This document shows, piece after piece, positions 4,321 to 11,283 of a stretch of DNA of 64,000 bases. Below the pieces are notes generated by a model. The model did no database searches. It saw only the letters and a program-made list of their open reading frames with translations, and was not told the DNA's origin. How positions within the stretch are numbered: the first letter of the stretch is position 1; each line of letters opens with the position of its first letter. The translations under genes and the position numbers were made by a program. Location of the stretch: contig OX597831.1 of assembly GCA_951406725.2 (NCBI GenBank), positions 57,784,001 to 57,848,000 on the forward strand. Direction: 5' to 3'. The DNA is from Octopus vulgaris. Taxonomy: Eukaryota.

Positions 4321-4504
4321 TATAATAATAATAAATATTAGGGAATAAATCCAAATTTACAGGGAAAAATTAGATTTAGGATTAAATCCAATTTTATAGT
4401 AAAATATTATATAATATAATTCGAGACAAAACCACTATTTTGCAAAACAAACAAGGAAAGACTTAATCAATACATAAAAATTTTTAATTTAAAGAAATAA
4501 ACCG

Positions 4505-4547
4505 CCACTACAATCGTTTCATGTCTTCAATGACATTCGTCATGTGG
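4505..4547 (-). ncRNA. Minimal type I hammerhead-like motif (core variant AUGACGA)
   Basis: ccac-ATGACGA-atgtc(attgaa)gacat-GAAAC-gatt-GTA-gtgg on the minus strand. Confidence 0.65.
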
Positions 4548-7500
4548 ATTTTCGATCTAAAATATCAATATATTAAAATATAAGTTTAAAATAATAAAAT
4601 TATCAATGAAAAATATAAATATATATAATCTATATATAATCTATATATAATCTATATATAATCAATATATAATCTAAATTAAACCCTATAAACAATTGAA
4701 TATAAAGAAACCTATTATTAAAGTTCTCATATTTAAAGATGTACAAAAAACAAAAAACAAAAAACAAAAAAACAAAAAACAAAAAACAAAAAACAAAAAA
4801 AACAAAAACAAAAACAAAAACAAAATAAAAATAAACTATATATACACACATGCTCATACACATATAACTAAATATATATAACCATATCTAAATACATACA
4901 CTAACTCACACACCAATATATATATCTCTATACATACACATAAAAACGTCTAGGCAACAATAAATGAATAAATTAAAAAAATAGCCAAATACTTCAACAC
5001 ATTACTTATTCTTACTCCCTCACACACACATACAACCCACAGTCATAAACAATATACATATACCCGCTCACACATACATATACATACATACAGAACTCGA
5101 TATATACACCAATATATTCACACCCACACTCATACAGATAAATAAATTACGCAAACAATCACACATACATAAACACTCAAAAGAAAATAAACAATTCTTA
5201 GCGCGTGGTGATCGAACGTTTTTTAAAAAAATTATAAATGGAAAGAATGGAATAATATTTAATCAACGTAAAAATACAGAATTTACTCCAAAATCATTAA
5301 TAAACCAATCATGATAATGAAACCCATATATACATATAATGATAAAACACCCTTTACCATACACAATAATACCTATATAGCAATCCCCATAATACATTCA
5401 CACACAAAACTACACATACGTAAAACACACACCCATAACATATACATATACCCCCTCACATATACATATACATACGTACTAAACTCGATATATACAACAA
5501 TATATTCACACCCACACCCATATAGACAAATAAATTACACAACCAAGTACGCACACACACACACACATTTACACATACAAAAACACTCAAAAGAAAAACA
5601 ACATATCTACACATAATACGATTTGCGCGTGGAGAACGTACGTTATTCAAAATTATGAATGGAATAAATGGAATAATATTTTAAACACTTAAACAGACAG
5701 AAATTACTACAAATTCTTTAATAAAACTACCATGATAAACGAAAACTCATATATACATATAACGATAAAATCTCCCTTTACTAAACACTATAACATACCT
5801 ATATAGCAATCCCCCTATCTATACATTCACACACAAATACACACACGTAAAACATACACCCACTACATATACATATACCCACTCCACTCACACATACATA
5901 TACATACGTACAAACCTCGATATATACATCAAAATCTTCACTCCCACACCCATACAAATAAATAAATATACGCACACACACACACATTTACACATATACA
6001 TAAACACTCAAAAGAAAAACAACATATCGACACATAATACGATATATAAAATACTCCATAAGTAACCAGATTATCATAAGTAACAAGATTAACATAAGGA
6101 GAAAAAAATACATACCTCCTAATCTGTTTTAATTTATGAAGTGAATTCAAACTCTAGCCGTTATAACTTTAAACAAGATTACGTTACCATAGGAACCGAA
6201 CATATTTATAAAAATTCTTAGCTCGGTGAACGAACGTCATTTAAAATTATGAATGGAACAGAATGGAATTATAAAATTCTTTGCGCGTGGAGAACGAACG
6301 TTATTCAAAATTATGAATGGAATAAATGGAATAATACAGACAGAAATTACTACAAATTCTTAAATAAAACTACCATGATAAACGAAATACATATAACGAT
6401 AAAAACTCCCTTTACTAAACACTAGAACATACCTATATAGCAATCCCCCTATCTATACATTCACACACAAATACACACACGTAAAACACACACCCACTAC
6501 ATATACATATACCCACTCCACTCACACATACAAATACATACGTACAAACCTCGATATATACATCAAAATATTCACTCCCACACCCATACAAATAAATAAA
6601 TAAAATAAATATCCCTAAAAAAACGGGTGCAATCTCACGCACATCAATCATGCATGTATACAAGTGCATACACAAGCACACACTTTTACCTAGCAATCAT
6701 GCACTCCCACATCTACACATGCACTTATACACGCGCACACATGCACACACACCCATAATATGCATATTCACAGACACTCTCCTAGACATCTAATATACGT
6801 ATAAATGGCTACAAAACAATACCCAATAAAACCACCAAGAACAACATACCAAGCTATAATGCATGGGGACTAAAATACTAAAAAATTCTTAATAAAAAAT
6901 CATGATAAATGAAATCCATACATACAAATATAAAGATAAAACCCCCTTATCAAATCCACAATACACACAATACACACACATATATACACACACCCACAAA
7001 CATAACCATATACACACTCACACATACATATACATACGTACAAAACTCGATATATACACCAATATATTCAATCCGACTCTCAATAAATGATTAATAAATA
7101 CAAATACAAACATAAATATATATATATATAAAATATATATAAATATATACATTCACACATATCATCCCAAACACATATTTATAAAATGCACTCTTTCAAA
7201 AAAGTAAATAAATATTAATATATATATATATATGAGTGTGTACACGCAGACGGGTGCAATCACACGCACATTCAAAACATACATGTATACAAGTGCATAA
7301 ACAATCCCACTCAATTACATAGCACTCATACACTCCCGCATCTACACTTGCACTTGTACACACGCACACATGCATACACACCCATACCTACCTATTCACG
7401 GACAATCTCCTAAATATCTATATAAACGTATATTGCAACAAACAATACCCAAATAAAACTGCCAAATTCAACATAACAAATAAAATACAAGGGGATTGTA

Positions 7501-8009
7501 AACATTCACACATACATACAAAACACAATATATACACCTCTAAATACACCCAATCATCCATAATAATATATCACCATATATACATATAACATATACATAA
7601 TAAAATAAATAAATAAATAAATAAACTTAGTATATAGGTAAAGTAACATATAAAGTTTCATGTTAAATAACATTAATAGCTTCCTTTAAAGGTTACTTTA
7701 GTTTAATATTAATTTTAGTTTAGAGTACCATATATATTTTTAGTTATATAGTTTAGGCTTTAATTATAGTTAGTCTTTAATTAGTATTTTTTTTGTTTTA
7801 ATTAATTCATTTTAATGTATATCAATATATAACAGCTTATGGTAAGTTAAAACTTTATTTAGTTATATTAGATTTATTTTATTTTATTTACTTATTTATT
7901 TATTTATTTATTTATTTTATTATGTATATGTTATATGTATATATGGTGATATATTATTATGGATGATTGGGTGTATTTAGAGGTGTATATATTGTGTTTT
8001 GTATGTATT

Positions 8010-8243: not shown

Positions 8244-11143
8244 TGTGTGAATGTTTACAATCCCCTTGTATTTTATTTGGTATGTTGAATTTGGCAGTTT
8301 TATTTGGGTATTGTTTGTTGCAATATACGTTTATATAGATATTTAGGAGATTGTCCGTGAATAGGTAGGTATGGGTGTGTATGCATGTGTGCGTGTGTAC
8401 AAGTGCAAGTGTAGATGCGGGAGTGTATGAGTGCTATGTAATTGAGTGGGATTGTTTATGCACTTGTATACATGCATGTTTTGAATGTGCGTGTGATTGC
8501 ACCCGTCTGCGTGTACACACTCATATATACATATATTAATATTTATATACTTTTTTGAAAGAGTGTATTTTATAAATATGTGTTTGGGATGATATGTGTG
8601 AATGTATATATTTATATATATTTTATATATATATATATTTATGTTTGTATATGTATTTATTTAATCATTTATTGAGAGTCGGATTGAATATATTGGTGTA
8701 TATATCGAGTTTTGTACGTATGTATATGTATGTGTGAGTGTGTATATGGTTATGTTTGTGGGTGTGTGTATATATGTGTGTGTATTGTGTGTATTGTGGA
8801 TTTGATAAGGGGGTTTTATCTTTATATTTGTATGTATGGATTTCATTTATCATGATTTTTTATTAAGAATTTTTTAGTATTTTAGTCCCCATGCATTATA
8901 GCTTGGTATGTTGTTCTTGGTGGTTTTATTGGGTATTGTTTTGTAGCCATTTATACGTATATATGTGTGTGCATGTGTGCGCGTGTATAAGTGCATGTGT
9001 AGATGTGGGAGTGCATGATTGCTAGGTAAAAGTGTGTGCTTGTGTATGCACTTGTATACATGCATGATTGATGTGCGTGAGATTGCACCCATTTTTTTAG
9101 GGATATTTATTTTATTTATTTATTTGTATGGGTGTGGGAGTGAATATTTTGATGTATATATCGAGGTTTGTACGTATGTATTTGTATGTGTGAGTGGAGT
9201 GGGTATATGTATATGTAGTGGGTGTGTGTTTTACGTGTGTATTTGTGTGTGAATGTATAGATAGGGGGATTGCTATATAGGTATGTTATAGTGTTTAGTA
9301 AAGGGAGTTTTTATCGTTATATGTATTTCGTTTATCATGGTAGTTTTATTTAAGAATTTGTAGTAATTTCTGTCTGTATTATTCCATTTATTCCATTCAT
9401 AATTTTGAATAACGTTCGTTCTCCACGCGCAAAGAATTTTATAATTCCATTCTGTTCCATTCATAATTTTAAATGACGTTCGTTCACCGAGCTAAGAATT
9501 TTTATAAATATGTTCGGTTCCTATGGTAACGTAATCTTGTTTAAAGTTATAGTGGCTAGAGTTTGAATTCACTTCATAAATTAAAACAGATTAGGAGGTA
9601 TGTATTTTTTCTCCTTATGTTAATCTTGTTACTTATGATAATCTGGTTACTTATGGAGTATTTTATATATCGTATTATGTGTCGATATGTTGTTTTTCTT
9701 TTGAGTGTTTATGTATGTGTAAATGTGTGTGTGTGCGTATATTTATTTATTTGTATGGGTGTGGGAGTGAATATTTTGATGTATATATCGAGGTTTGTAC
9801 GTATGTATATGTATGTGTGAGTGGAGTGGGTATATGTATATGTAGTGGGTGTGTGTTTTACGTGTGTGTATTTGTGTGTGAATGTATAGATAGGGGGATT
9901 GCTATATAGGTATGTTATAGTGTTTAGTAAAGGGAGATTTTATCGTTATATGTATATATGAGTTTTCGTTTATCATGGTAGTTTTATTAAAGAATTTGTA
10001 GTAATTTCTGTCTGTTTAAGTGTTTAAAATATTATTCCATTTATTCCATTCATAATTTTGAATAACGTACGTTCTCCTCGCGCAAATCGTATTATGTGTA
10101 GATATGTTGTTTTTCTTTTGAATGTTTTTGTATGTGTAAATGTGTGTGTGTGTGCGTACTTGGTTGTGTAATTTATTTGTCTATATGGGTGTGGGTGTGA
10201 ATATATTGTTTTATATATCGAGTTTAGTACGTATGTATATGTATATGTGAGGGGGTATATGTATATGTTATGGGTGTGTGTTTTACGTATGTGTAGTTTT
10301 GTGTGTGAATGTATTATGGGGATTGCTATATAGGTATTATTGTGTATGGTAAAGGGTGTTTTATCATTATATGTATATATGGGTTTCATTATCATGATTG
10401 GTTTATTAATGATTTTGGAGTAAATTCTGTATTTTTACGTTGATTAAATATTATTCCATTCTTTCCATTTATAATTTTAAAAAAAAACGTTCGATCACCA
10501 CGCGCTAAGAATTGTTTATTTTCTTTTGAGTGTTTATGTATGTGTAAATGTGTGTGTGTGATTGTTTGCGTAATTTATTTATCTGTATGGGTGTGGGTGT
10601 GAATATATTGGTGTATATATCGCGTTCTGTATGTATGTATATGTATGTGTGAGCGGGTATATGTATATTGTTTATGACTGTGGGTTGTATGTGTGTGTGA
10701 GGGAGTAAGAATAAGTAATGTGTTGAAGTATTTGGCTATTTTTTAAATTTATTCATTTATTGTTGCCTAGACGTTTTTATGTGTATGTATAGAGATATAT
10801 ATATTGGTGTGTGAGTTAGTGTATGTATTTAGATATGGTTATATATATTTAGTTATATGTGTATGAGCATGTGTGTATATATAGTTTATTTTTATTTTGT
10901 TTTTGTTTTTGTTTTTGTTTTTTGTTTTTTTTGTTTTTTGTTTTTTGTACATCTTTAAATATGAGAACTTTAATAATAGGTTTCTTTATATTCAATTGTT
11001 TATAGGGTTTAATTTAGATTATATATTGATTATATATAGATTATATATAGATTATATATAGATTATATATATTTATATTTTTCATTGATAATTTTATTAT
11101 TTTAAACTTATATTTTAATATATTGATATTTTAGATCGAAAAT

Positions 11144-11186
11144 CCACATGACGAATGTCATTGAAGACATGAAACGATTGTAGTGG
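11144..11186 (+). ncRNA. Minimal type I hammerhead-like motif (mirror of 4505-4547)
   Basis: ccac ATGACGA atgtc attgaa gacat GAAAC gatt GTA gtgg. Confidence 0.65.
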
Positions 11187-11283
11187 CGGTTTATTTCTTT
11201 ATATTAAAAATTTTTATGTATTGATTAAGTCTTTCCTTGTTTGTTTTGCAAAATAGTGGTTTTGTCTCGAATTATATTATATA

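Follow-up and report, generated by a model that had tools for sequence, protein, structure and literature searches.

Inverted, 5'-truncated copies with a tail on one side only are a published feature of Penelope-like elements (PLEs), as the available parts of two earlier accounts describe (PMC8557442, PMC3846280). Hydra-clade PLEs (Craig et al. 2021, PMC8557442) combine one open reading frame (ORF), in which a reverse transcriptase (RT) with DKT is followed by a C-terminal endonuclease and in which CxCx5C, CxxC and CxH motifs occur, with a canonical hammerhead, a (TA)n target, partial tandems and an inverted 5'-truncated copy with a tail at one end. Penelope of Adineta vaga (Arkhipova et al. 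2013, PMC3846280) forms head-to-head inverted pseudo-long-terminal repeats (pLTRs), one of them tailed, together with junction palindromes, long tandem and inverted structures and Asn-rich inserts in its ORF. These features, the endonuclease as a putative one, have counterparts in the family described here, which is represented by a large palindrome in a 64-kb window of Octopus vulgaris (OX597831.1:57,784,001-57,848,000; coordinates below are positions in this window). The palindrome is very probably a 5'-truncated, head-to-head insertion of a Hydra-type PLE into the (TA)n of a short interspersed element (SINE), most likely made in one event, and its arms are almost certainly the ~3.4-kb 3' untranslated region (UTR) of that element.

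Self-comparison of the window returns an inverted repeat between 4405-7513 and 8243-11286, extended by 114 bp at 7512-7625 and 7895-8008. BLAST pairs the arms (4405-7625 and 7895-11283, ~3.2 kb each) in inverted orientation at 96.2% including gaps, with 269 bp between them, so that both the arms of more than 3 kb and the ~270-bp spacer reported in a first-pass annotation of this DNA are borne out. Pairwise alignment of the arms likewise recovers the point changes noted there (24 substitutions, one of them at the boundary of a Helitron-like insert, besides small microsatellite indels) and the SINE confined to the right arm (236 bp, 8009-8244), but the stretch confined to the left arm measures 40 bp (6752-6791) rather than ~45 bp. 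An 81-nt tail (4323-4404) is present at the left end only; the right end has none, and its last position, 11283, is the fixed tail-less (short) end site of the family. On either side of the insert, 4151-4324 and 11687-11940 align collinearly with intact copies of the SINE from the window. The earlier placement of the palindrome within the (TA)n of one SINE is therefore correct as far as the two halves are concerned, but incomplete: a Helitron-like element, missed at that stage, also sits in the host SINE and separates the right arm from its (TA)n. The features of the locus are as follows.

4151..4322, plus strand: 5' half of the host tRNA-type SINE, up to the (TA)n target; 88-92% to the corresponding halves of the window's other SINE copies.
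4323..4404, minus strand: 81-nt tail of the PLE (long end); an identical sequence precedes (TA)n in family copies and is not in the right arm.
4405..7625, minus strand: left arm by alignment, 5'-truncated, 3' UTR only, with degenerate internal repeats of ~390 bp.
4505..4547, minus strand: putative minimal hammerhead motif of type I with the A3 change, at 4543, from the core motif and family comparison.
6752..6791, minus strand: 40 bp retained on the left and deleted on the right; found in five of the six sibling loci tested, so that the right arm has the derived state.
7626..7647, minus strand: 22-nt inverted tip, by alignment to five relatives (L045, L047, L031, L037 and L050; L numbers denote family loci).
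7648..7894, plus strand: the 'spacer', unpaired 5' part of the right arm, comprising the last ~7 ORF codons, the stop (7668-7670) and the start of the 3' UTR, as in the same five relatives.
7895..11283, plus strand: right arm, an inverted 3' UTR copy finishing at the short end, by alignment and the family ends.
8009..8244, minus strand: young SINE carried by the right arm; it has 2646 candidates, and 39 other copies match it at 97-100%.
11144..11186, plus strand: putative minimal hammerhead motif of type I with the A3 change, at 11148, and a cleavage site predicted after 11182, from the core motif and family comparison.
11284..11652, minus strand: non-autonomous Helitron-like element of ~370 bp, with 5' TC and a 3' GC-rich hairpin plus CTAG, between A and T; 1941 candidates at 98-99% identity, ends compared in 15 copies.
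11653..11940, plus strand: (TA)n/(TG)n and 3' half of the host SINE, by SINE comparison.

The arms are assigned to the 3' UTR because, in full elements, the sequence collinear with them is the one that follows the ORF on its 3' side. In long copies of the family the ORF sits upstream of the 3' sequence, and the locus retains only the last ~7 codons of the RT ORF; in one relative (L045) a 3' copy lies upstream, the ORF is frameshifted, and a 3.1-kb 3' sequence matches the arms. The left 300 bp alone have 1567 candidates in the genome, the 40 scored ones at 91-100%. A search with the arms for further copies and an autonomous partner, as the first-pass annotation had envisaged, found both, with an unbroken frame of 821-852 aa in nine of the 20 ORF-bearing loci fetched (L053, L057, L062-L064, L068-L070 and L072, the last of 840 aa). 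An autonomous Penelope-like family thus exists in the same genome. The palindrome was rightly said to have no ORF, its longest open frame being 136 codons and its frames of low complexity, but the view of it as a strange ORF-less entity is not supported: its arms are the 3' UTR of that autonomous family.

The predicted fold of the ORF (predicted local distance difference test score, pLDDT, 83.6) is best matched by telomerase RTs, which supply the top seven Foldseek matches (E 1.8e-9 to 1.8e-8) at low TM-scores of 0.27-0.28. By eye, the translation of L062 contains DKT, a CxCx5C linker, and CxxC and CxH around a conserved E and N, with no CCHH. Its N-terminal motif is RIKWKA (KWK) versus RMRWKA in Hydra-1_Obim, a conservative change from RWK, and a VVY..YIG-type C-terminal motif, also read by eye, resembles Hydra alignments, domain profile searches having given no match. 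The protein fits the Hydra clade, a placement that rests on these motifs. Named homologues of the ORF come from octopods, the 3' end passes into (TA)n at almost every locus inspected, and partial tandems (pLTRs) occur in L045, L054, L059 and L062-L070. The tandem units are spaced 3.6-6.5 kb apart, with a 3' UTR of up to ~3.9 kb, and so fall outside the 'generally <3 kb' given for the clade in the available parts of PMC8557442, a trait that is descriptive and not diagnostic; a tail of 81 nt instead of 30-40, KWK for RWK and an Asn-rich insert are further departures from that description, and the family is visibly distinct from Hydra-1_Obim. The insert, Asn/Lys-rich and of low confidence, occupies residues 494-601 of the L062 ORF, where it separates the RT from the putative endonuclease, and resembles the N-rich inserts found in A. 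vaga Penelopes. In those elements, as far as PMC3846280 is available, the pLTRs are ~200 bp and target duplications are visible, whereas here 3.2 kb is duplicated and the (TA)n hides any target duplication. No account of this family was found in the literature, an absence that is weak because Repbase, bioRxiv supplements and most subscription papers lay outside the search; six family motifs were without match in the supplement text of PMC8557442, in which some sequences are incomplete. The family is new, of a known Hydra-type kind, and extends the Hydra clade to long-UTR members undetected by Pfam.

Both ends of the palindrome carry the same 43-nt hammerhead-like motif (4505-4547, minus strand; 11144-11186, plus strand) with A at core position 3, as the first-pass annotation had seen. 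It is type I, with a short helix I and a short palindromic helix III suited to dimer folding, and in these respects resembles minimal PLE hammerheads (Cervera and de la Pena 2014, PMC4209133), among which pairs on opposite strands 100-700 bp apart are already known. In the available parts of that paper the core variant is a compensated U3-A8, unlike the uncompensated, sporadic A3-G8 of this locus, which lacks the canonical C3-G8 pair. Across the family the core is CUGANGA/GAAA with canonical C3, represented by 313 exact matches against two for the A3 27-mer, both at this locus. A shorter pattern recovers two more A3 copies, L171 and L172 (G000:C17), each in a different sister lineage; A3 therefore recurs sporadically. 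Stem II shows a compensatory A-U to U-A change across subfamilies, and helix III is a self-complementary 8-mer in most variants. Since Rfam returned no hammerhead at its gathering score in the window, nor at E<=10 in L091 and L052, and the single-strand minimum free energy fold of the motif is not a hammerhead (z -0.48), the ribozyme call rests on the core motif, family conservation and covariation. A3 is sporadic decay and not a conserved non-canonical core; a conserved A3 ribozyme class is rejected on the exact-match counts together with the independent recurrences. In the Poseidon element of Anolis (PAc; Frangieh et al. 2024, PMC11167929) C3G kills hammerhead cleavage but not insertion in vitro, and by analogy the A3 hammerheads are probably inactive. 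The earlier proposal that the change predates the inversion holds in the form that A3, being shared by both arms, predates or accompanied it.

Animal non-LTR (long terminal repeat) retrozymes (Li, Clavereau, Pollet 2026, 10.64898/2026.07.22.740005) are likewise non-coding and PLE-derived with a type I hammerhead. Their tandem units, as described in the available text, each carry a hammerhead, unlike the one per arm and truncated autonomous element seen here; with none in the internal repeats and no tandem hammerhead units, a retrozyme was rejected as an identity for the palindrome. Separately, at one family locus (L087, G000:C6:72317000-72322000) hammerhead motifs recur every 69 bp, five in all, of which three are direct and two inverted; it is a very small retrozyme-like tandem array of the family.

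The inverted head-to-head layout is the norm of this family. Every exact 27-nt C3 motif match on contigs C1 and C2, 46 of the 313 matches at 33 loci, was taken regardless of layout, and 30 of the 33 loci have a head-to-head inverted arm. The tail is on exactly one arm in 29 of these 30; the other locus has two short ends, none has two tails, and the short end coincides with the AT-rich site that is 11283 in this window. No second copy of the whole palindrome occurs among the sampled loci. Nor is the size of the palindrome exceptional in this family, as sister subfamilies have longer arms: ~5.7 kb at 99.4-99.9% in L093+L070+L094 and 5.3 kb at 99.55% in L057+L095, with 3.5-kb arms at 98.4% in L096+L072. 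Of 15 one-tail loci that each have one exact hammerhead, nine are longer in the tail-less arm and six in the tail-bearing arm. In L136 the arms scarcely overlap, so that neither can be a copy of the other and two primed cDNAs are needed.

Three further observations concern the family at large. The 14-kb insertion at L093+L070+L094 (G000:C3:63962208-63984207) has an 839-aa frame, and its inverted arm abuts a direct partial copy. Most exact-motif copies (L088-L105, L136-L155) belong to a subfamily that is short and non-autonomous; an internal deletion lies immediately upstream of the hammerhead, and the 5' end recurs ~32 nt before the motif. Over the last ~70 bp before the short end (11210-11280) summed contig depth reaches ~2.4 million, against tens of thousands over the hammerhead, which suggests very many ultra-short stubs, depth being no copy number.

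At the centre of the palindrome, the 'spacer' (7648-7894) aligns collinearly with the five relatives from the end of their ORF into the 3' UTR; it is not foreign DNA but right-arm sequence without a left-arm counterpart. Next to it, 7626-7647 is the reverse complement of 22 nt at the ORF end of the element, where the relatives have a 5-bp stem with an 8-nt loop; this tip carries two 2-bp deletions and one substitution, and likely marks, at the 5-bp hairpin, the original centre of symmetry. Both arms come within ~12 nt of one point, beside which the left arm is without ~250 bp, and a 3-nt microhomology can be read at this gap. Such a centre fits either two cDNAs annealed through the inverted microhomology of the hairpin or a snap-back, followed by deletion or by skipping on the part of the RT.

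We lean, without strong conviction, towards dual priming of both target strands at this locus. Both nicked strands would prime reverse transcription on RNA from one source copy, one strand at the tail end and the other at an internal site 81 nt upstream. PLE RTs are not known to have RNase H, which would allow the same RNA to serve as template twice. The two cDNAs would run ~3.4 kb, halt within ~12 nt of each other at the small ORF-end hairpin and be joined through its 5-bp inverted microhomology, after which ~250 bp of the left arm beside the centre would be lost, if it had not been skipped by the RT. The resulting asymmetry would damp hairpin and cruciform formation, and the SINE, the Helitron-like element, the 40-bp deletion and ~11 point changes per arm would have come later. 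A precedent is found in PAc, whose protein nicks and extends both strands in vitro from two RNA start sites bounding the tail; PAc shares with the octopus family two fixed 3' ends bounding the tail and an AT-rich target, and its hammerhead is dispensable for insertion in vitro (PMC11167929). It belongs, however, to another clade, its hammerhead overlaps the ORF start, and its RT, in the available parts of that report, starts without target homology, whereas both ends here are AT-rich and could pair with (TA)n. The first-pass annotation had added that palindromes of this size are normally unstable, an argument weakened by the stability in wild-type yeast of 6-kb Ty inverted repeats with a 280-bp spacer, as reviewed in PMC7999016 in the sections available.

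Sequence differences between the arms bear on age and source. Substitutions were called by pairwise projection against 16 sibling segments, with 2862 paired sites callable. Nine are common to both arms and in no sibling, A3 among them, and 20 are arm-specific; the nine shared private substitutions indicate that the arms come from one template lineage. With the closest siblings as outgroup, the arms have 22 differences, 11 right-derived and 11 left-derived. Private change totals 0.56-0.77% per arm versus 0.66-0.70% in the closest siblings. Shared and arm-specific sites are intermixed (P=0.73), interleaving within 6-32 bp, so that no conversion tracts are visible. On the simplest reading, the insertion came from one template lineage and is about half as old as the sibling burst. 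The SINE at 8009-8244, which differs from the majority of its 29 best matches at two of 217 positions, was inserted after the palindrome formed.

Several points weigh against this account. That both cDNAs should stop at a single spot, 3.4 kb away from the 3' end, is a coincidence under independent priming and simpler under fold-back. Microhomology joining is not strongly supported family-wide: in a junction comparison that left out L083-L086 and L025, and in which L005 and L082 are doubtful, most long-copy junctions show an overlap of 0-5 nt or a few untemplated bases. The search for a source copy carrying the shared variants found none, the A3 27-mer having two matches and the variant at 9025 two of 13, all at the locus; fold-back and old gene conversion are for this reason still to be weighed, as either fold-back or partial conversion between the arms would make the missing source unnecessary. 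Contigs of four public runs gave no bridging piece at the centre or right end, being repeat-flooded and skipping 7591-7633 and 7861-8035, and deliver no verdict either way. As to the element itself, searches of the ORF against Pfam and NCBIfam and a phmmer search of PDB found nothing significant, and GIY-YIG was seen by eye only.

It is possible, if on balance doubtful, that fold-back produced the second arm: the first cDNA, if not a broken DNA end, would have snapped back at the 5-bp hairpin and been copied, and the near-spacerless 3.4-kb palindrome would later have been stabilised by the 250-bp central deletion. The 22-nt tip, apart from its two 2-base deletions and one substitution, is the expected product of a snap-back at this hairpin, and the shared private variants are explained without a missing source. 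Inverted repeats of 5-9 bp with 3-12-nt spacers drive palindromic duplication in yeast (PMC7999016), and Arkhipova et al. 2013 interpret junction palindromes as self-priming (PMC3846280), each in the parts available. Several short copies are near-symmetric at the centre, and L140, L143 and L145 combine a tip with an internal deletion in one arm, although the symmetric centres of the short subfamily cluster at its recurrent 5' end, where two complete cDNAs would also yield them. Against fold-back, the right end falls exactly at the tail-less end of the family, where it is not evident why DNA copied from the left arm should stop, and L136, L042, L043 and L044 are impossible as fold-back copies unless large deletions followed. 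With either arm the longer one in different loci and the arms of L136 scarcely overlapping, fold-back alone is insufficient family-wide, and priming of both strands at two sites explains these patterns.

An insertion as old as its siblings, in which conversion between the arms later homogenised them in part and spread A3 and eight other changes, is improbable. Shared plus arm-specific changes per arm do equal the sibling branch lengths, and the absent source copy is as this would have it, but the close interleaving of the two classes of site leaves no tracts, and in multi-copy insertions inverted pairs are not clearly more similar than direct pairs.

An assembly artefact, whether a fold-back read or mis-joined repeat copies, is highly improbable. 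No run was seen to bridge the centre or ends, and complex PLE insertions trouble assemblies (PMC8557442, in the parts available), but each arm has 11 derived substitutions of its own, the SINE and the 40-bp deletion are each in one arm only, nine variants occur in both arms and in no sampled sibling, the asymmetric ends are typical of the family, and the flanks are halves of one SINE. The first-pass annotation had argued from the arm differences against a read artefact, and the right end at the fixed short-end site of the family strengthens its case; we reject such an artefact on the arm-specific substitutions, one-sided indels and family-typical ends.

A Foldback-type DNA transposon, giant miniature inverted-repeat transposable element or selected hairpin-RNA or ribozyme device, to which long inverted arms, internal tandem repeats and the lack of an ORF might point, is largely refuted and retains next to no credibility, the arms being retroelement 3' UTR with unequal ends and no matching terminal inverted repeats moving as a unit, the family copies variably 5'-truncated and A3 a private decay.

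Elsewhere in the window, a 614-bp tandem array of ~6.5 copies at 99.7-99.9% identity (15474-19473) is followed by a 23-bp C-rich repeat (19479-20389) and then a 1036-codon frame (20527-23634), which from its motifs we take to resemble a long interspersed element (LINE). A 1.6-kb inverted match at 82% between 22066-23696 and 33022-34632 probably represents two LINE fragments. A U6 small nuclear RNA gene or pseudogene lies at 31681-31791 (102 bits), and a 492-codon frame at 51262-52737 on the minus strand presumably resembles the RT of another Penelope-like family.

The palindrome itself is inert, non-coding debris of a known retroelement class and of little importance; the family has some use. 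The origin of tandem and inverted PLE structures is called an open question in the available parts of PMC8557442, and this family makes it testable through its one-tail rule (29 of 30), its intact ORFs and its young copies. One retroelement family has made several inverted repeats of 3-6 kb, at 98-99.9% identity, in an animal genome. It is tempting to speculate, and we do so tentatively, that the locus is a fossil of Penelope inversion, in which one RNA was copied twice from two fixed starts, the cDNAs were joined, and the resulting near-spacerless palindrome of several kilobases was rescued by a central asymmetric deletion. If so, the family, whose young inverted copies number in the hundreds and range from 0.1 to 5.7 kb, would offer natural data for deciding between dual priming and self-priming, and the same copies could measure the stabilisation of palindromes in an animal germ line.

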